Part shown: positions 35,443 through 47,352 of the stretch, piece after piece | Numbering within the stretch: position 1 is the first letter of the stretch | Layout: each line of letters starts with the position of its first letter | Assembly: GCA_018001225.1 (NCBI GenBank) | Contig: JAGNIJ010000009.1 | Span: forward strand, 821 to 64,820 | DNA: 64,000 bases | Direction: 5' to 3' | Source of the DNA: Kiritimatiellia bacterium | Lineage (GTDB): Bacteria; Verrucomicrobiota; Kiritimatiellia; CAIQIC01; JAGNIJ01 | Translations under genes and position numbers: made by a program | Notes under the pieces: model-generated | Told to the model about the DNA's origin: nothing | Databases searched by the model: none | What the model saw: the letters and a program-made list of their open reading frames with translations, nothing else

Positions 35443-36246
35443 TCACCCGTGCCGCGGGGCCTGGAGGAGTTCGTGGGGCCAGAGGCCGAGCTGGGTGAGG
35501 ACGTTCTTGTGGGTCTCGTTCTCGCGGGCGAGGGCCATGACCGGCGCGGCGAAGTCGCGTTCGACGCGCTCCAGGTCCACCTTGAGCTCGGGCCGGTTCC
35601 CGGCGGCCGGGGCCAGCATGCGGCCGGTGGAGCGCAGGACAAACCACAGCAGGTGCAGGACGGCGTAGAGGTGCGCCCGGTGGTCGGCCGGGTCGTCCGG
35701 GCCGTCGGCCGTGCCGCGGGGCCCGCCGGGCGCGAACGTGACGGGCCGCGTGTAGAACCGCGCCTGCGTCTGGAGGAAATCGTCGCCGAGCCGGGCAAGG
35801 ACGAGCCGGATCGAATCGCCGCCCTGCAGGTTCTGGGGCTTGAGCGCGTCGCCGGAGTAGGCGTCCTGGTAGTCCTTGCGCGCGCTTTTCCCCGAGTTGC
35901 GGGAGAGCCAGACCACGGCGTTCTGCGGATCGTCCAGCCACTTGCCGATGATCAGCGGGGCCTCGACGAACGGCCGGAGGGACGCCCAGGCGCGGGCGGA
36001 CTGGTACTCGGTGAGCGCTTCGAACGCGTTCCGCGCCTGCCGCTGCATGACCTGGAGGAAGGGGGCGGGCGTGATCGCGTCGCGGCCCTTGGCGGAGGGC
36101 AGCGGCCCGACCAGGGAGGCCCAGCGGGGGAAGAGCCTGTCCAGCGCGTCGAAGGACTCGAGTTCCGCCCGGAACTGGAGCAGGAAGATTTCGCGCTGCT
36201 GGTTCAGCGCGGCGCGGTAGCGGAGGAGATCGAAACTGTGGTTCAC
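35443..36246 (-). CDS. Hypothetical alpha-helical protein, weak DUF5677/HEPN-like pattern (267 aa)
   Basis: Uninterrupted ORF ending 6 nt before the binding-protein start; LRPFVEA...KWLDDP.NA..W resembles lRs..E...yl..dp..a..w. Confidence 0.65.
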   Translation of the reverse strand: MNHSFDLLRYRAALNQQREIFLLQFRAELESFDALDRLFPRWASLVGPLPSAKGRDAITPAPFLQVMQRQARNAFEALTEYQSARAWASLRPFVEAPLIIGKWLDDPQNAVVWLSRNSGKSARKDYQDAYSGDALKPQNLQGGDSIRLVLARLGDDFLQTQARFYTRPVTFAPGGPRGTADGPDDPADHRAHLYAVLHLLWFVLRSTGRMLAPAAGNRPELKVDLERVERDFAAPVMALARENETHKNVLTQLGLWPHELLQAPRHG

Positions 36247-38542: not shown

Positions 38543-39772
38543 TCACCCGTCGCCGATGCCGCCGGACCAGTCCTCGCCCGAGAAGGCCTCTTCCATCTGG
38601 ACCTGGGTGTCGCGGCGGTACCACCGCTTGTACAGCTTGCCGATCCAGTAGAAGACCAGCAGGGGCAGGGCCACGACGGCCAGCAGGTAGTTCGTCAGCG
38701 AGACGAGGTAGTAGGCCGAGTCGCCGAATCCGCCGATCATCCCTTTCGCCCAGGGCATGGTGAAGACGGGCGTCGGCGCGAACACGTTGAGGTTCCACAG
38801 GATGATCGCGACCGAGATGTAGTTGACCATCTGGTTCGGGAACGGCGAGGCGGACGTGCACCACCGCAGGCCCATCGTCCGCTGCTTCGTGAACGGCGGG
38901 AACAGGTTCGAGCCGAGGTGCCCCGTCTGGTCCACCAGCACGTGGCTCCAGAAGGCGAGGATGGCGATCCAGAACGCCGTCACGGCGAAGCGGTTGGTGA
39001 AGAACGCCGGGAGGTCGCCGCGGAACAGGGCCGGCCAGTCCGCGAAGAGCGCGAACCCGATCGGGCCCATCAGCAGGCCGAGGGTCAGGCTATGCGTCCA
39101 TCGGCGGTGCCACGGGATGAAATCCACGCGCACGCGCCCGTCCTTCTCCGGCACGAACTCGTAGTCGGGCCCGGAGAACACGCCGATCTCCGTGTCCATG
39201 TAATAGGTGTTGTTGATCTCGCTCTGGAACGAGGCGACGTGGCTGGTCGGGCCGGGCGGGATCGTGTCGGGCAGGCACGGCAGGTCCCGGGCCAGCGACT
39301 CCATGAAGGCCGCGGGGCCGTCCTCCTCGATCTTGCGCCGGCGCGTTGCCTCGCTGGGCAGGCGCTCGCCGCGGGCCATGGACTGGCTCATGGTCTTCAG
39401 CGGGCCGATGGTGCAGGTGACCGTCCTGTTCCGGTCGTCGATCTGGACGGCGTAGGCGCGGTAGTGGCTCGGGCCCACGCGGATCGTGTCGAGTTTCAGG
39501 CGGATGGGCCGCTTCTTCTCCGCGGCCTCGTCGATCGCCCGGGCGATGGCCTCGGCGGGGAGGCGCGGGTCCAGGTGGTCTTCGGAAAGCCGGATCTGGT
39601 GATCGATTTTCCAGAAATAGCGCGCGAACTTGAAATCCAGCGTGTCGCAGAGGATGCCGCAGACCCCGCCGAGCACCATGAGGTAGGCCTTGTCCTCGTA
39701 CGCGGTGCGGATGGCGAGCGGGAAGCAGGAGGCCGCCGCCACCCCCGTCAGGAAATGCGTGATGCCTTTCAT
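38543..39772 (-). CDS. Membrane-bound metal-dependent hydrolase (YdjM/DUF457-like) with ~150-aa insertion (409 aa)
   Basis: M.GITHFL.G, (C)DTLD, HRRWTHSL, SHVLVD...G.NLFPPF motifs; long soluble insert between DTLD and HRRWTHS. Confidence 0.75.
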   Translation of the reverse strand: MKGITHFLTGVAAASCFPLAIRTAYEDKAYLMVLGGVCGILCDTLDFKFARYFWKIDHQIRLSEDHLDPRLPAEAIARAIDEAAEKKRPIRLKLDTIRVGPSHYRAYAVQIDDRNRTVTCTIGPLKTMSQSMARGERLPSEATRRRKIEEDGPAAFMESLARDLPCLPDTIPPGPTSHVASFQSEINNTYYMDTEIGVFSGPDYEFVPEKDGRVRVDFIPWHRRWTHSLTLGLLMGPIGFALFADWPALFRGDLPAFFTNRFAVTAFWIAILAFWSHVLVDQTGHLGSNLFPPFTKQRTMGLRWCTSASPFPNQMVNYISVAIILWNLNVFAPTPVFTMPWAKGMIGGFGDSAYYLVSLTNYLLAVVALPLLVFYWIGKLYKRWYRRDTQVQMEEAFSGEDWSGGIGDG

Positions 39773-39788
39773 CGCCCTCGCTCCTCGT

Positions 39789-41126
39789 TCACCGGAACCC
39801 GAGCCATTGCGCGACGCGGTGGCCGACGCCGGCCATGTTGAGGCTCACCGGGACCATCAGCACCGCCAGCAGCGGCACGCGCCGCGTGTGCCAGAAATTG
39901 GGGACGAGCCCGAGCGCCGTGGAGACCGCCATCAGCACGAGCCCGCGCCAGCCCGTCACGAACCCGACCATGGCCACCAGCAGCAGCGCCGAGAAGCCCG
40001 AGATCCAGTGATAGTCCACGCGCCCGGTCGTCCGGGCGCAGAAGCGCGCGAAGCGCGGCAGCAGCCACAGGGTCGCCGCGCCGCTGACGGCGATCACGCC
40101 AGACACGGCCAGGTACTGCTCCACCGTCTCGGGCACGAAGAAGAGGCTGATGTTGATCGCCGCGCCGCCGCGGCGCATGTAGACGTCCGGCATGAAGAAC
40201 AGCACCAGCGCGCCGATGTAGTAGAGGACGCGCGCCGCCCCGCCGCCGACGAGGAACTGCTTGTCGCCGGACGAGCAGGTCGCGTGGGCGCCGATCAGCA
40301 GGGCCGGGCCGGGCGTCAGGCCGGGCGTCAGGCTGGAGAAGAGGCCGGCGACCGTGCCGGTCAGCGCGCCGCGCGCCAGGTCGTGCGGCTCCGCGTCCAC
40401 GCTGCGCGCGAAGTGCTGGGGCGGGATCCGGGTCCGCGTGATGACGGTCATGATCTGGCTCGGCAGCGCGAACAGGCCCATGAACACGGGCATCAGCGAC
40501 TGGAACGCGCTCTCGACCGGGATGATCGTGTTGTAGAAGACGAACATCCCCAGCACGGCGGCCGCGACGAAGGTGAAGAAGCCCATGCCGAGCTGGACCC
40601 AGCCGTCCGCCAGGCGCTGCCGCACGGTCTGGCCCACGCCGTGGTCCTTGGGCCATTCGCCGATCAGGATGAACGCGCAGACCAGGCCGAGGATCCAGTA
40701 GACGTGCGGCCGGATCAGCTCGCGCACCAGCCCGATCGGCTTGGTCAGGAACGGGAAGAGCCCGGCGATCAGCACCAGGGCCGCCAGCGCGCCGAAGCCG
40801 CTCAAGATCACTGCCTCGTACCCGCGTCCCTCGTAGAGGAAGCGCTCGTGCGGCATGATCATCGAGCGGAAGCTGTCGTCGCACGGCTGGAAGAACTGGC
40901 TCGAGACCGTGAAGAGCACCGAGAACCCGACCACCATGCCCAGGATGAAACTCGTCGTCAGCATCGGGTCCAGGGCGTCGAAGAACTCGACGAACGCGAA
41001 GGCCAGCATCATCGTGAAGGCGATCACGTTGTAGATGTGCAGGCCGGGAATGAACGAAAAGACCGCGGCCACGGCCACGCCGAGGAGCGCCGTCGGGATG
41101 CACAGCAGGAGCGTGTTGAGTTCCAT
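39789..41126 (-). CDS. Tripartite tricarboxylate transporter permease (TctA/DUF112), archaeal COG1784-like (445 aa)
   Basis: About 11 hydrophobic segments; FIPGLHIYN, PHERFLYEGRGYEAV.LSG.G, G..SSLTPGLTPG match my recollection of archaeal DUF112 motifs (PG.H.N, P.H...EGRG.EAV). Confidence 0.72.
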   Translation of the reverse strand: MELNTLLLCIPTALLGVAVAAVFSFIPGLHIYNVIAFTMMLAFAFVEFFDALDPMLTTSFILGMVVGFSVLFTVSSQFFQPCDDSFRSMIMPHERFLYEGRGYEAVILSGFGALAALVLIAGLFPFLTKPIGLVRELIRPHVYWILGLVCAFILIGEWPKDHGVGQTVRQRLADGWVQLGMGFFTFVAAAVLGMFVFYNTIIPVESAFQSLMPVFMGLFALPSQIMTVITRTRIPPQHFARSVDAEPHDLARGALTGTVAGLFSSLTPGLTPGPALLIGAHATCSSGDKQFLVGGGAARVLYYIGALVLFFMPDVYMRRGGAAINISLFFVPETVEQYLAVSGVIAVSGAATLWLLPRFARFCARTTGRVDYHWISGFSALLLVAMVGFVTGWRGLVLMAVSTALGLVPNFWHTRRVPLLAVLMVPVSLNMAGVGHRVAQWLGFR

Positions 41127-41129
41127 CGG

Positions 41130-41978
41130 TCAGTCTCCGCCCGTCCCGTCCGCGGGCTCGATGGCCCGGGGATCGCCCCGGGCCGTCTTGATCTCCCAGT
41201 AGCCCATCTTCTCGAAGTACACGAACTGCCCGCGCACGGACACTTTCTGCCCGGCCGCGAGCCGGTGGCCGTCGAACCCGAACACCAGGACCGTGTTGGT
41301 CTGGCCGGGCTCGCGGATCCGGACGATCGGGTGGGCCGCGGCGGCATCGGCCACCTCGGCCGCCGCCACGAAGATCCAGCGGTTGCTGAAGCGGCCGGGC
41401 TCGGCGAGCAACTCGGCGACCGTGGCGGGCAGGTCCTCCCGGGCCTCCCGCGTGCCGTCGGCCGGGCGCGACTTGATCTTGATCATCTGGGCGCTGTTGA
41501 CGCTGACGAAGCGGTACGAGGAGCCCGCGAACAACGAGCCCGCGATCTCGATCACGTCCCCGCGCCGCGGCGGATCCTGCAGCGCCGCGAAATCGAGGGC
41601 CGCCTCGCCCTCCAGCCGTGCGGAAAGGCGTTGGCGGCCGGGCGTGTCCGCGGTCGCCAGGTCCTCCAGTTCAATCCGCACCAGGGGGGCGTTGTAGCGG
41701 TCCTGCGTGATGGAGACGTTGACGACCCGCCCGGCCAGGCGGACCCGTTCGAAGTTCATCTCGGCGGTCAGGTCGCGGAAGTCCGCCAGGCGGGGCCGGT
41801 AGGTCAGCGCCGCGGTGAAATGGATCGCCGCGATCGCGAGCAGGAGCAGCGCGCCCCGGCCGATCCAGGCCGTCGAGATCCGCGTCCGGAGCGAGGCCGC
41901 GCAGCAGCGGCAGACCGTGGCCTCCGCGGGGAGGGGCCGGCCGCAACTGGGGCAGGCGACCTGTTCAGGGTTCGGCAT
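41130..41978 (-). CDS. Zn-ribbon / TM / two OB-fold-like domain protein (282 aa)
   Basis: CPSC-x10-CRCC, TM helix WIGRGALLLLAIAAIHFTAAL, then V.L.G.V...RRGDVIEIAG and AGQKVSVRG.F OB-type strands. Confidence 0.65.
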   Translation of the reverse strand: MPNPEQVACPSCGRPLPAEATVCRCCAASLRTRISTAWIGRGALLLLAIAAIHFTAALTYRPRLADFRDLTAEMNFERVRLAGRVVNVSITQDRYNAPLVRIELEDLATADTPGRQRLSARLEGEAALDFAALQDPPRRGDVIEIAGSLFAGSSYRFVSVNSAQMIKIKSRPADGTREAREDLPATVAELLAEPGRFSNRWIFVAAAEVADAAAAHPIVRIREPGQTNTVLVFGFDGHRLAAGQKVSVRGQFVYFEKMGYWEIKTARGDPRAIEPADGTGGD

Positions 41979-42846
41979 TATCGGCCTTCCATTGCGCTTC
42001 GTCCGCCGGCTGCAGGTCCTCCGGCCCGGCCAGCACCAGCTGCCAGGAGGATTGCTTCTGGCTCCGGTATCGCTGCAGGGCGCCGAAGCACGTGACGTAT
42101 TGGCCCTTGCGCATGAGCTCCTGTGAGCGGTCCGCCGGCCCCGCGCCCCGGGCTTTCATGACATCCTGGGAAATATTCACCGCGAGCCGGTGGCCCCCGT
42201 CATCCTCGATCAGCCAGACCAGGTCGTACGAACTGGGGATGCGCGACTGGACGCGGCCGGTGACCTTCAGGCGCGCGCCCTCCTCGAGCCCCTCGCGGAA
42301 CGCGCGCACGACCTTCCCGAGGGGGGTGGCCTTGTCGGGTCTCTCGCGGACGATCTCGAGGTCTTCCACGGCGCTCAAGATCATGATCTGGCGCCGGGCC
42401 TTGTACTGGTAGTTGCCGATCAGCGAGACGCGGTCGCCGAAGACGGGAATCTTGTCCGCCTTGAGCAGGTCCTCCGTCGTGTCGTCGTAGCAGCGGATCC
42501 GCATCAACCCGGAACCGTCGTCGACCTCGAACTCCAGGCTGCTGTTGCGCCCCTGGTCGTCGGCGGGGTGGTGGCGCAGGTCGCCGCTGAGGCGCCCCTC
42601 GAGGCGGCCCTGCGCGAAGTTCGTCTTGGGGCCCAGGCTGGCGATCCTGACGGTCGGCGAGCCGTACACGCGGCCGAGGTGCGAGAGCAGCACGAGGCCC
42701 GCGAGGGTCAGGAACGGCGTGCTGTACTTCAGGAAGCGCACGATCCGCCGCTTGGGGTTGAACTGGCGGCAGAAGGGACACCTCTCCCACGAGCCGATGA
42801 ATCGCCCGCAGGCCCGGCACGTGGTTTCCGCCGGGTTCTGGCTCAT
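41965..42846 (-). CDS. Zn-ribbon / TM / two OB-fold domain protein (293 aa)
   Basis: CRAC-x9-CPFC, TM helix, LEFEVDDGSG.MRIRCY...GDRVSLIG and KVTGRV...LIEDDGG...KGQYVTCFG, typical OB (tRNA_anti/RPA-like) motifs. Confidence 0.72.
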   Translation of the reverse strand: MSQNPAETTCRACGRFIGSWERCPFCRQFNPKRRIVRFLKYSTPFLTLAGLVLLSHLGRVYGSPTVRIASLGPKTNFAQGRLEGRLSGDLRHHPADDQGRNSSLEFEVDDGSGLMRIRCYDDTTEDLLKADKIPVFGDRVSLIGNYQYKARRQIMILSAVEDLEIVRERPDKATPLGKVVRAFREGLEEGARLKVTGRVQSRIPSSYDLVWLIEDDGGHRLAVNISQDVMKARGAGPADRSQELMRKGQYVTCFGALQRYRSQKQSSWQLVLAGPEDLQPADEAQWKADNAEP

Positions 42847-43021
42847 CACCAGCCGGCTGATCTCGGGGTCCAGTTTGATGCCCGCAGCCTACATGCCCCG
42901 CGGGGTGCCGACAAGGTTAATCCGGCCATCCGCCCCGGGAGGCGAAAAGCGAAAACGTCATGGCCGTCGGATCCGTATTGTGCTACAGGTGGCCACGCGC
43001 AGGACCGATGCGCAGGTACTC

Positions 43022-44000: not shown

Positions 44001-45605
44001 CTAGCGGTCCTGCAGCCGGCGCCATGGGCGGAGGGCAAACTGCCATAGCCCCGTCGATTCCGGCAGCCGCAGCGCCAGCGTCAGGATGAAATAGACGGCG
44101 ACGGCCGCGGCCATCGCGGCGCCGAGCGCCATGATTTCACCGGGCAGCCCGGCGGGCAGGAGCGCGCGCAGCCGGTCGTGCACCGCGGCGGCGCTGAAGC
44201 CGCAGGCCGCGGCCGCGGCCGCGACGCCGGCCATGAACCCGATCCAGCCCGGGCTTCCCGGGTGAACCAGCCGGCGGAGATAGATGAACAACTGCGCCCC
44301 GTTGATGAACGCGAGCGCGGCCGTCGTGGTCGCCAGCCCCACGTGGCCCCAGCCCAGCACCTTGACCATCAGGAGGTTCAGCCCCAGGTTCACGCCGATG
44401 CCCAGCAGGCCCACGCGCAGCGGGATCCTCGGGCGGTCCAGCGCGTAGAAGCACGGCGCCAGCACCTTGATCGCCGCGTAGCCCGTCAGCCCGAACGCGT
44501 ACGCCCGCAGCGCCAGGGCCGTGGCGGCCGTGTCCGCGGCGGAAAACCGGCCGTGCTGGTAGATGACCCGGATGATCGGCTCGGCCAGCGCGAACAGCCC
44601 CACCGCCGCCGGCAGCGTCAGGAACACCGCCAGGCGCAGCGACGAAGTCACGGTCGACCCGAACGCCGCCAGGTCGGACCGCGCGTGGTGCCGCGCCACG
44701 GCGGGCAGCGTCACCGTGGCGATGGCAACGCCGAAGACGCCGAGGGGGAACTGCATCAGCCGGAACGCGCAGTTCAGCCATGAGCGCGCCCCGTCGATTT
44801 CCGAGGCCAACATGCCGTTGACCAGCACGTTCACCTGCACCGCCGCGCCGGCGATCACGCTCGGCCACATCAGCCGCCAGACCGTGCGGAGCTTCTCGTT
44901 GCGGAAATCCAGCCGCCAGCGGAACCGGTAGCCCAGCCGCCAGAGGGCCGGCGCCTGGATCGCCATCTGCGCCACGCCGCCCAGCAGCACGCCCAGGCTC
45001 ACGCCCCACAGGGCCCGCTCCCCGAAGTGCGGGTGCCGCCAGTCCGGCTGGGGGTCGAAGAGATAGGCCAGGCCGACACCGAGGACGATCGACACGATGT
45101 TGAAGACCGTCGAGGCCGACGCGGGCAGGCCGAAGATGTGCCTCGCGTTCAGCGCGCCCATGATCACCGCGGCGATCGACACGAAGAGGATGAACGGGAA
45201 CAGCACCCGCGTCAACTGCACCGTCAACTCGAACTTGCCCGGGACCTGGTGGAACCCGAAGTTGGTCACGTGCACCAGCAGGGGGCTGGCCGCGATGCCG
45301 AGGATGCACACGCCGCCGAGGATCAGGATCACCGACGACAGCAGCAGGCTCAACAGGCCCCAGGCGGATTCGTCGCCCTCCTTCGCGTGGGTCTTGGTGA
45401 ACGTCGTCGTGAAGGCGACCGACAGCGCGCCCTCGGCGAACAGGTCGCGCATCAGGTTGGGGATCTGGAAGGCCGCGAGGAAGGCGTCGAGGAATTTTCC
45501 CGCGCCGAACATCGCGGCAAAAACCAGCTCGCGGACCAGGCCGAAGACCCGCGAGCCGACCACCGCCAGGCCCACGATGCCCGCCGATTTCCGGGTGCCG
45601 GTCAT
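44001..45605 (-). CDS. murJ: Lipid II flippase MurJ/MviN (534 aa)
   Basis: SRVFGLVRE...AAMFGAG...DAF.AAF.IPNL.RDLFAEGALS.AF, RL.QFPLGVFGVAIATV.LP, I....YQHG.F...DT, FYALD....P. Confidence 0.94.
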   Translation of the reverse strand: MTGTRKSAGIVGLAVVGSRVFGLVRELVFAAMFGAGKFLDAFLAAFQIPNLMRDLFAEGALSVAFTTTFTKTHAKEGDESAWGLLSLLLSSVILILGGVCILGIAASPLLVHVTNFGFHQVPGKFELTVQLTRVLFPFILFVSIAAVIMGALNARHIFGLPASASTVFNIVSIVLGVGLAYLFDPQPDWRHPHFGERALWGVSLGVLLGGVAQMAIQAPALWRLGYRFRWRLDFRNEKLRTVWRLMWPSVIAGAAVQVNVLVNGMLASEIDGARSWLNCAFRLMQFPLGVFGVAIATVTLPAVARHHARSDLAAFGSTVTSSLRLAVFLTLPAAVGLFALAEPIIRVIYQHGRFSAADTAATALALRAYAFGLTGYAAIKVLAPCFYALDRPRIPLRVGLLGIGVNLGLNLLMVKVLGWGHVGLATTTAALAFINGAQLFIYLRRLVHPGSPGWIGFMAGVAAAAAACGFSAAAVHDRLRALLPAGLPGEIMALGAAMAAAVAVYFILTLALRLPESTGLWQFALRPWRRLQDR

Positions 45606-45753
45606 GCCGGACCATAGCACGGCCGGAAAACCGCTTTCAATGCCGGCCTGGTCCGAAAACGAAACGCCCGCCGGCCCGGCGTGGCTCAAAGAGGGCGGGA
45701 AGATACGGGGGGCCCGGTCGACAGGAGCAGTTGTGCAACCGAGGGGAACAGCG

Positions 45754-47352
45754 ATGAAAACATGTATGGTGGCCGCCCTGGTGAGCCTGGGATGCCTCGC
45801 CGCCGCGGCCGAGGATCTTGCCGTGAGAGACGCCGACGAGCTTGCGGCGGCCCTGGCCCGCGCCGAATCCGGCGACCGGGTCCTGGTGAGCCGAGGCCAA
45901 TACGCGGGCAATTTCACGGTATCGCCGGGCGTTTCGCTGCTCGGGGAGCCCGAGTTCATGCCGGGTGGCGGGATCATGCCCGAGTTGTCCCCCTGGGGCG
46001 ACACGCCCATTGTCGTGGCGCTGACCGATGCCGGCGAGAAGCACCCGACACAGGTGCGCGGGCTGTTCTTCACCGGCGCCAAGAGGTCCGCCGTCGAGGT
46101 GCGGGGCGACGGCGTCGGCTATGTCTGCCACAACATGTTCGAGCAGAACCGCGGCCCGCGGGGCGGCGCGATTTACTCCGAGGCCGACGGGACGATCTAC
46201 ATCCAGACGAACTATTTCAGTTCCAATACGGCGGAGACGGACGGCGGGGCCGTGTACATCGGCGGCACGGCCGGCGTTTCGCTGCGCATGAACGAGTTCC
46301 TGCGCAACGGGGCGGGCGCGAGCGGCGGCGGCTTCGCGGTGCGCGGGACCAACCTGGTGGCCTCGGACCGGGATTTCTTCATGGACAACACGGCCGCGCA
46401 GGATGGCGGGGGCGTGTCCGTGGTGCTGAATCCGAAACAGGTCATTCTGAATCGGGCCAGCTTGTTTGACGGCCGGGCCGGTCGCGACGGCGGGGCCGTG
46501 TCGGCGGACCGGGCCACCGTGATCATCCTCTATGGCTCGTCGAGCGGACACAGGGCCGGCCGGCATGGAGGCTTTCTCTCGGTGATCGGCGGCGCCGCCG
46601 GGGTCGGCTCGCACAGTGGCCATTCGGCCACGGCCGCGGAGTGCGGCGGCGGCGTCTACTCGGAGGCTTCCACGCTCTCGTGCCAGGGCAGCGAGTGGAT
46701 GTCCTGCGCGGCGCGGTTTGGCGGCGGCATGGCGATACGGACGATGCCGGCGGCAGGCACTCCGCCGCTTGTCCAGCGCAACACCTTCAAGCAGAACCGG
46801 GCGGTCAAGGACGGCGGGGCGTTGTACCTGGCGGACCTGAAGGAGGCCCGGGTCGAGAACAACGTGCTCTTCATGAACACCGCGGGAATCGGGGACGGAA
46901 TGGTGCTCGAGCCCGATGCGACGGCGCTCGTGGATCACAACACCATCGCCCACATCGAGTATCGTTCAGGCCAGCCCCTGCCGGTGGCCGAGGCCATACG
47001 CGTCCGCGGGGCGGGCAACACCACGCGCGTGGTGAACAACATCATCGCCGGGCACGCCCGCGGCGTCATCGGAGACGCCGGCGGCCGGGTCCAGGTCCTG
47101 GGCAACGATTTCTGGCTCACGCTGCTACCCTGGCGCGACGTGCCGAACCCGGCGGGCCTGCTCAACCGGCAGGGCATCAATCCCGTCTTCGTGCAGTTCG
47201 ATCCGCGGCGGATGATCGGAGACCTGCACCTGCAGCCGAACTCGCCGTGCCGCAACGCGGGCGTCCTGCCGGTCCTCACGACCGTGGACCGCGACGGGCG
47301 GCGGCGCGACGCCCAGCCCGACCGCGGCGCCTACGAACTGCCGGCCCTCTGA
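45754..47352 (+). CDS. Secreted right-handed beta-helix protein with Pmp-like N.A..GGA(I/V) repeats and C-terminal anchor-Q motif (532 aa)
   Basis: Signal peptide; repeated N.A..DGGAVY; DLHLQPNSPCRNAG...DRDG..R...PDRGAYE. Confidence 0.8.
   Translation: MKTCMVAALVSLGCLAAAAEDLAVRDADELAAALARAESGDRVLVSRGQYAGNFTVSPGVSLLGEPEFMPGGGIMPELSPWGDTPIVVALTDAGEKHPTQVRGLFFTGAKRSAVEVRGDGVGYVCHNMFEQNRGPRGGAIYSEADGTIYIQTNYFSSNTAETDGGAVYIGGTAGVSLRMNEFLRNGAGASGGGFAVRGTNLVASDRDFFMDNTAAQDGGGVSVVLNPKQVILNRASLFDGRAGRDGGAVSADRATVIILYGSSSGHRAGRHGGFLSVIGGAAGVGSHSGHSATAAECGGGVYSEASTLSCQGSEWMSCAARFGGGMAIRTMPAAGTPPLVQRNTFKQNRAVKDGGALYLADLKEARVENNVLFMNTAGIGDGMVLEPDATALVDHNTIAHIEYRSGQPLPVAEAIRVRGAGNTTRVVNNIIAGHARGVIGDAGGRVQVLGNDFWLTLLPWRDVPNPAGLLNRQGINPVFVQFDPRRMIGDLHLQPNSPCRNAGVLPVLTTVDRDGRRRDAQPDRGAYELPAL

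Follow-up and report, generated by a model that had tools for sequence, protein, structure and literature searches.

What is encoded by four tightly coupled genes in a 64,000-nucleotide stretch of Kiritimatiellia bacterium DNA (the window; contig JAGNIJ010000009.1 of assembly GCA_018001225.1, positions 821 to 64,820), two of which specify membrane-anchored proteins with oligonucleotide/oligosaccharide-binding (OB) folds, the third a TctA-family permease and the fourth a YdjM-family membrane protein? The best reading is that this operon, at window positions 38543–42879, may represent an enlarged bacterial version of an archaeal OB/TctA-like DNA-uptake module, and thus a candidate import route that operates without ComEC. 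We assign a probability of roughly 45% to nucleic-acid capture and uptake as the function of the module in bacteria.

The archaeal precedent comes from Methanococcus maripaludis, in which MMJJ_13020, an OB protein with a single transmembrane (TM) helix, adjoins MMJJ_13030, which is TctA-like and has 11 TM helices (Fonseca et al., 2023; PMC10133366). Transposon insertions and in-frame deletions of either gene abolish natural transformation, and the deletions were complemented in trans. The TctA-like protein SAMN04488571_104187 of Methanoculleus thermophilus is also essential for transformation (PMC10133366). The TctA-like protein was proposed as the missing archaeal DNA transporter in that study, which mentions neither a hydrolase partner nor bacterial homologues (PMC10133366); our literature search found no later paper on the TctA-like transformation protein. 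A first-pass annotation of the window had proposed a role in nucleic-acid handling for the four gene products, in which OB folds in place of TctC would capture nucleic acid or another polyanion, the permease would import it and the hydrolase would process it. The M. maripaludis transformation genes provide a genetic precedent for the nucleic-acid role; the parts given to the single proteins are conjectural. The same annotation called the complex uncharacterised and stated that archaeal DUF112 permeases have no assigned partners; the M. maripaludis pair makes the second statement out of date, and the first does not wholly apply to the OB/TctA-like pair (PMC10133366). New beyond that study are the bacterial occurrence, the conserved YdjM-like third partner, the alternative partners with PLD plus LTD domains or a NERD domain, and a conserved AUU/AUC start codon.

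The minus strand carries the four open reading frames (ORFs), here termed A to D. Genes A and B share 14 nt, a gap of 3 nt separates B from C, and one of 16 nt separates C from D, in agreement with the spacing in the first-pass annotation. Because the four genes are bounded by genes on the other strand, they form a self-contained operon. Its features are the following, with the evidence in parentheses.

41965–42879, minus strand: gene A, a protein with a zinc ribbon, a single TM helix and tandem OB folds (ORF, Pfam, AlphaFold model, Foldseek, start-codon analysis).
42769–42819, minus strand: the CxxC...CxxC zinc ribbon of A (C10, C13, C23 and C26), predicted to be cytoplasmic (Cys invariance, charge).
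42664–42747, minus strand: the single TM helix of A, residues 34–61 (secondary structure of the model).
42004–42609, minus strand: the two OB-fold domains of A, approximately residues 80–166 and 192–281, predicted to be extracytoplasmic (model and Foldseek).
41130–41978, minus strand: gene B, a paralogue of A, 282 residues, with a zinc ribbon, one TM helix and OB domains (ORF, invariant Cys, hhalign, Pfam).
39789–41126, minus strand: gene C, a divergent TctA-family permease, 445 residues, with approximately 11–12 hydrophobic segments (Pfam, family alignment, hydropathy, tree).
38543–39772, minus strand: gene D, a YdjM/DUF457-family membrane protein, 409 residues, a putative metal-dependent hydrolase (Pfam, invariant residues, model).
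39119–39610, minus strand: the family-specific alpha/beta domain inserted in D, residues ~55–218, predicted to be cytoplasmic (alignment, loop Lys plus Arg counts).
42877–42879, minus strand: the probable non-canonical ATC start codon of gene A (homologue comparison).
42880–43021, no strand assigned: the intergenic region between gene A and a divergent gene for an LpxL-type acyltransferase (sequence, Pfam of the neighbour).

The OB/TctA-like/YdjM-like set is a conserved module across phyla and domains. One genome per species was scanned, a relative of C was found in 403 genomes, and 80 loci were fetched; the module was counted at 68 evaluable loci with iterated hidden Markov model searches of six-frame ORFs. 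One or more OB genes lie upstream of C at 58 of the 68 loci (adjacent at 48), a D-like gene lies downstream at 45 of the 68 (adjacent at 37), and OB and D-like genes are both present at 36 of 58. The carriers among the fetched loci are all metagenome-assembled genomes (MAGs) and belong to at least six bacterial phyla (Verrucomicrobiota/Lentisphaerota, Wallbacteria, Myxococcota, Planctomycetota, Chloroflexota and a few others) and to five archaea. In the five archaeal MAG loci the full trio was verified. The 80-locus survey thus bears out the earlier expectation that the genes are kept together. A second, diverged copy is present in the genome of the window (contig C16, 3509–7419), with an OB protein of 513 residues (PF01336, 5.8e-25), a TctA-like protein of 447 residues and a YdjM-like protein of 333 residues that has a short insert. 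Clustering of all neighbouring ORFs revealed no further partner in more than 17 of 84 loci. At one Thermoplasmata locus (L031, 333–7688), a surface protein of 2451 residues with PKD, OB-fold and LTD domains lies directly upstream of an OB-OB-TctA-YdjM set.

The N-terminal region of A forms a zinc ribbon whose four cysteines are all invariant in 19 homologues. The AlphaFold model of A (predicted local distance difference test score, pLDDT, 89.7; predicted template modelling score 0.78) contains this ribbon, the TM helix and two OB barrels. A matches the tRNA_anti-codon OB fold in Pfam (PF01336, 1.6e-6, 28.4 bits against a cut-off of 27), and a Foldseek search of the model against the PDB returned 286 matches at E<=0.001, of which the best 50 are all tandem-OB binders of single- or double-stranded DNA. 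Among the named matches are Deinococcus SSB (DrSSB, 2e-9), RPA70 DBD-A/B, Pyrococcus abyssi RPA, Teb1, Oxytricha TEBP, POT1 and HIN domains. The OB domains of A, as modelled, are genuine OB folds of the type that binds single- or double-stranded DNA, and DNA binding itself is only predicted. Over its full length, B is paralogous to A (hhalign of the two families: probability 99.9, E 4e-33, 258 columns), and its ribbon cysteines (C9, C12, C23 and C26) are invariant in the B family. In Pfam, B itself has weak zinc-ribbon matches and a DUF4131 match at 0.0095, below threshold; among 20 members of its family, PF01336 is found in 8, and DUF4131 is found weakly in 6 (best 2.7e-4). The ribbon, single TM helix and two OB-like domains that the first-pass annotation had read in the first two genes are thus upheld, for A by the model and the invariant cysteines and for B by paralogy to A, and the OB-like domains of A are confirmed as OB folds by the matches to SSB, RPA and POT1 types.

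The OB folds of A and B are predicted to lie outside the membrane, because the segment that precedes the TM helix of A is positively charged (net +2 to +5) and because some Chloroflexota OB partners carry a lipoprotein-type signal and a Pro/Thr-rich linker in place of the ribbon and TM helix.

C matches TctA over its full length (PF01970, 4.7e-22, profile positions 4–422 of 423), and no relative of C was found in the PDB by sequence. The C family is almost fixed at 445 residues and has 60 invariant columns, which include PGLH.YN, EGRGYEAV, EWPK and WHTRR. The IPGLHIYNV and PHE.FL.EGRGYEAV stretches of C correspond to the family consensus, in agreement with the PG.H.N and EGRG.EAV motifs that had been recognised earlier in a permease of approximately 11 TM helices. 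In the permease tree, the C family is monophyletic and is separated from other TctA-like proteins by a long stem. Clade I contains the window, Wallbacteria and Myxococcota, with five archaeal sequences at its base; clade II contains Chloroflexota and the second copy from the genome of the window. The interleaving of archaeal with bacterial members agrees with transfer between the domains, an exchange with archaea that had been suggested at first pass; the long outgroup branches leave its direction unsettled. Other archaeal TctA-like proteins, from DPANN and Methanocellales, are 23–28% identical to C and fall outside its clade. The closest classical DUF112 proteins of archaea (Aenigmarchaeota-type, ~405 residues) are encoded beside Cdc6 and PolB, with neither an OB nor a YdjM gene; membership of the module is thus not shared by all archaeal TctA-like genes. 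A search seeded with one of these DUF112 proteins reached DPANN archaea only and did not reach Methanococcus.

The family assignment of C raises the possibility that the operon supplies the permease of a conventional tripartite tricarboxylate (citrate-type) transporter, with the partner genes at other places in the genome. Pfam places C in TctA, and NCBI labels its homologues 'tripartite tricarboxylate transporter permease'. However, neither TctC (PF03401) nor TctB (PF07331) has a match anywhere in the 95%-complete genome, whereas the control genomes gave matches, which extends to the whole genome the absence of both partners that was first read from the window. Moreover, C is a protein of 445 residues in a separate, long-stemmed clade and is fixed beside OB and YdjM-like genes, and a tblastn search of C against 72,556 plasmids returned only two relatives, both OB-linked and both from cultured cyanobacteria, and no canonical tctA. 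A citrate-type transporter is therefore barely credible here.

D matches YdjM in Pfam (PF04307, 5.3e-11, 42.8 bits against a cut-off of 29) in two stretches that are split by an insert. Residues H6, D43, D46, H222-R223, H227, H277 and D281 are invariant. The H/DxxD/HRxxTHS/HxxxD ligands proposed in the first-pass annotation therefore stand; its insert of ~150 residues needs correction, since the inserted domain comprises ~165 residues and is present in all 33 aligned homologues (shorter and without the helical part in the 333-residue type), and thus defines the D family and is no local oddity. Among 1.84 billion representatives, this small family accounts for 188 clusters at E<=1e-30. The Lys plus Arg counts of the loops in D follow an in/out pattern of 13.6 versus 1.5, from which, under the positive-inside rule, the His/Asp cluster and the inserted domain probably face the cytoplasm. 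With the His/Asp site inside and the OB folds outside, any processing by D would take place at the inner face of the membrane, not beside the OB folds.

YdjM is presumably classed with the phospholipase C/P1 nuclease group, which is split between lipid and nucleic-acid substrates. Neither Foldseek nor a core-only profile against the PDB supported this relation for D. The D model (pLDDT 86.6) has no fold match in the PDB by Foldseek, including among nucleases and phosphodiesterases, and a profile of the insert alone has no match in the PDB or Pfam. A phmmer similarity of the insert to the double-stranded-RNA-binding domain of Drosha (E 0.13) was rejected, as the insert-only profile gave nothing in either database. 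A literature match for 'DUF457' was found to concern DUF4579 of Cap1 and is irrelevant to D.

The OB/TctA-like pair also occurs with other partners. A secreted protein of ~1000 residues, with two PLD/HKD domains and LTD (or CarboxypepD_reg) repeats, follows D at 17 Chloroflexota or archaeal loci (for example L004 8397–11762, L038 12438–15551 and L081 12737–15634) and is absent from the window operon. The combination of PLD/HKD and LTD is typical of extracellular nucleases and phosphodiesterases, and the protein is likely to be an extracellular phosphodiesterase or nuclease partner. In both cyanobacterial plasmid relatives, the permease gene follows a gene for a TM and OB protein. The Cylindrospermopsis curvispora plasmid NZ_CP060823 (L089, 4222–8400) carries the OB/TctA-like pair and then a membrane protein in which a coiled coil is combined with a nuclease-related NERD domain; the Pseudanabaena galeata plasmid NZ_CP112877 (L090, 3886–6380) carries a TM+OB/TctA-like pair. 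These cyanobacteria are possible tractable hosts. Three unrelated partner types (YdjM-like, PLD+LTD and NERD) thus accompany the same pair, and the PLD+LTD and NERD partners point to phosphodiester or nucleic-acid chemistry.

The secreted PLD/LTD enzymes encoded alongside in many genomes could also generate fragments outside the cell, as nutrient scavenging would need. In such a scheme, the outward, membrane-tethered OB folds would bind oligonucleotides, nucleotides or another phosphorylated polyanion in the role of TctC, C would import small products by an elevator-type mechanism, and D would dephosphorylate or cleave them inside. The full-length TctA match favours this scheme, with small-solute transport as the default mechanism; ComEC is already present for transformation; and the distribution is that of a nutritional trait, near-universal in the class of the window (51 of its 61 genomes, including 28 of the 31 of high quality, encode a D-family protein) and common in sediment and groundwater MAGs. 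Conversely, the sole genetic data on such a pair concern the loss of plasmid-DNA transformation, which needs the uptake of long DNA (PMC10133366), and the ligands of tandem SSB/RPA-like OB folds are polymers and not mononucleotides. Overall, we consider scavenging unlikely as the principal function, while ranking it first among the alternatives to nucleic-acid uptake.

The surroundings of the operon bear on a further explanation. According to Pfam, the flanking genes encode a Na+/H+ exchanger and a PTS EIIA-2 protein downstream, and a divergent LpxL-type acyltransferase followed by MurJ upstream. The position beside the envelope genes for LpxL-type acyltransferase and MurJ would fit a role in envelope maintenance. 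In this reading, the ligand of the OB folds would be an oligosaccharide or a surface polymer with phosphodiester links, C would transport a precursor that is anionic or linked to lipid, and D, together with a PLD-type partner, would attack lipid head groups as a phospholipase- or phosphodiesterase-type enzyme; loss of transformation in archaea would be a secondary effect, exerted for instance via pili or the cell surface. PLD/HKD enzymes also act on phospholipids, the presumed phospholipase C/P1 nuclease group of YdjM likewise covers both kinds of substrate, the module is widely conserved in the lineage, and the OB ectodomains are not basic, all of which agree with such a role. However, this envelope-gene neighbourhood is not kept in other phyla, the bacterial and archaeal carriers differ greatly in their envelopes, nucleic-acid binders make up all of the best structural matches to the OB domains, and the cyanobacterial NERD partner is nuclease-related. 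Envelope maintenance is accordingly judged distinctly unlikely.

Two further ORFs were observed in these surroundings. An ORF of 267 residues without a Pfam family (window 35443–36246, minus strand) lies between a gene for a Peripla_BP_2 binding protein and the PTS EIIA-2 gene. Upstream of the MurJ domain, the MurJ ORF (window 44001–46082, minus strand) has ~186 further open codons, and the ORF overlaps the 5' part of a long plus-strand ORF (45097–47352) whose C-terminal half contains beta-helix/PMP repeats.

The promoter of the operon presumably lies in the intergenic region at 42880–43021. A scan for the sigma-70 consensus gave no match, only weak terminator-like sites were seen, and no inverted-repeat operator was seen upstream. 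NCBIfam searches of the four proteins added nothing beyond Pfam, and the PADLOC defence models gave no match.

The first gene appears to have an unusual start. The ORF of gene A (41965–42846/42849) encodes 293 residues from the ATG at 42846 and 304 residues from a probable start at ATC 42879, which lies 33 nt (11 codons) upstream of this ATG. An in-frame TAG (42889–42891) is located 4 codons upstream of the ATC and 15 codons upstream of the ATG, and a purine-rich AGG that resembles a Shine-Dalgarno (SD) sequence precedes the ATC by ~10 nt. The window segment 42844–42893 (minus strand) was compared with loci L001, L005–L020, L022 and L028. The 11 codons before the ATG encode IKLDPEISRLV, a peptide that is conserved in Verrucomicrobiota/Lentisphaerota and Wallbacteria homologues, and the Ile codon is ATT (10) or ATC (7) in each of the 17 clade-I homologues. 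A coding pattern is evident in the 16 codons that begin with this Ile (17 homologues; entropy 0.65 at the first codon position, 0.38 at the second and 1.24 at the third). Upstream of the Ile codon, conservation collapses, except for an SD-like GGAGG or GGTGG at a distance of 6–10 nt. In several homologues a stop codon immediately precedes the Ile codon, and ATG, GTG and TTG are absent. The deposited Wallbacteria gene call (L001, 6438–7073) starts far downstream and omits the zinc ribbon, truncated for want of a canonical start; Myxococcota homologues enter the same peptide from a normal ATG. Based on the conserved ATT/ATC, the coding pattern after it, the SD-like sequence before it and the stops without a canonical start, gene A most likely starts at ATC 42879, not at ATG 42846. 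The conserved AUU/AUC initiation codon, which we take to be of the kind known from infC and pcnB, suggests low or initiation factor 3-sensitive translation of the first gene.

In the proposed mechanism for nucleic-acid uptake, A and B would be anchored by one helix each, with a cytoplasmic zinc ribbon and, on the outer side, two OB folds of SSB/RPA-like type that capture nucleic acid, most likely single-stranded DNA. C, without TctB and TctC, would provide or gate the route across the cytoplasmic membrane. D, at the cytoplasmic face, might cleave phosphodiester bonds or trim the emerging substrate, or hand it over to cytoplasmic proteins. The present analysis shows how the genes are arranged and conserved, which type of OB fold is encoded and that TctB and TctC are lacking, and the need of the archaeal pair for transformation was shown in M. 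maripaludis (PMC10133366). We infer the topology and the substrate, as well as the direction in which C transports and the catalysis by D.

Several points weigh against this mechanism. TctA-family proteins are secondary transporters that are thought to move small anions, and we know of no mechanistic precedent for the passage of a polymer via a TctA-type protein. The hydrolase activity of D is a family annotation only, without a match in fold or core profile to a solved nuclease or phosphodiesterase. The net charge of the OB ectodomains, approximately -5 to +6, is uninformative on the ligand. A housekeeping function, in the envelope or in nutrition, would account equally well for the near-universal presence in the class. 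A very long branch separates the permease clade of the window from other archaeal TctA-like proteins, and the module is linked to the M. maripaludis pair by family and architecture, a likeness that does not demonstrate orthology. Finally, the genome of the window contains canonical ComEC in two copies as well as DprA, and the need for another DNA importer is therefore not obvious; given these genes, the module would be an additional route, not a replacement.

A broader form of the nucleic-acid reading is doubtful as a whole. According to this form, the module would be a second, ComEC-independent nucleic-acid mover in archaea and in many uncultured bacterial phyla, with C as the translocator, D as a new membrane phosphodiesterase of the inner face, and the first gene under translational control by its AUU/AUC start.

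The reading of the operon as a nucleic-acid uptake module has consequences beyond this locus. How DNA enters archaeal cells is still debated, and no transporter candidate other than the OB/TctA-like pair has genetic support. Its conservation in several bacterial phyla, alongside a fixed third membrane partner and recurring nuclease-like neighbours, provides a defined parts list of three or four proteins for reconstitution and structure determination. A route of nucleic-acid import other than ComEC may thus exist in bacteria, which bears on horizontal gene transfer and on the turnover of extracellular DNA in sediments and groundwater. If the reading is correct, it would also provide the first functional context for the YdjM/DUF457 family.

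The window operon was compared with four known systems. With the M. maripaludis pair it shares an OB membrane protein upstream of a TctA-family permease of ~11 helices, an OB fold of the nucleic-acid type and the lack of TctB and TctC. It differs in its bacterial host, the two OB paralogues with N-terminal zinc ribbons, the conserved YdjM-like partner and the distinct 445-residue permease clade.

Compared with ComEC, the module contains the same three kinds of parts, namely, OB folds predicted to lie outside the cytoplasm, a membrane protein with many helices and a putative metal-dependent hydrolase. DUF4131, which the B family matches weakly and below threshold as described above, is the N-terminal OB region of ComEC. 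In contrast, these parts are separate genes, C has no homology to the Competence domain and D has none to the MBL nuclease; neither Competence (PF03772) nor the MBL nuclease domain was matched by Pfam in A to D. The nuclease domain of ComEC is placed outside the cell, whereas the metal site of D appears to be cytoplasmic, which makes the analogy to a disassembled ComEC imperfect.

With Salmonella TctABC, C shares full-length membership of PF01970. Unlike that system, C lacks TctB and TctC, is shorter, has fewer helices and other conserved motifs, and is in fixed association with OB and YdjM-like genes.

The E. coli proteins YdjM and YbcI (DUF457, COG1988), which are LexA-regulated inner-membrane proteins, share with D the N-terminal His, DxxD, HRxW(S/T)HS and HxxxD. 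The YdjM/DUF457 type is a small all-membrane protein of ~180–200 residues without a soluble domain. D departs from it with 409 residues, twice the length, and with a soluble domain of ~165 residues after the second helix, and it belongs to a small separate family that is encoded next to a TctA-like gene.

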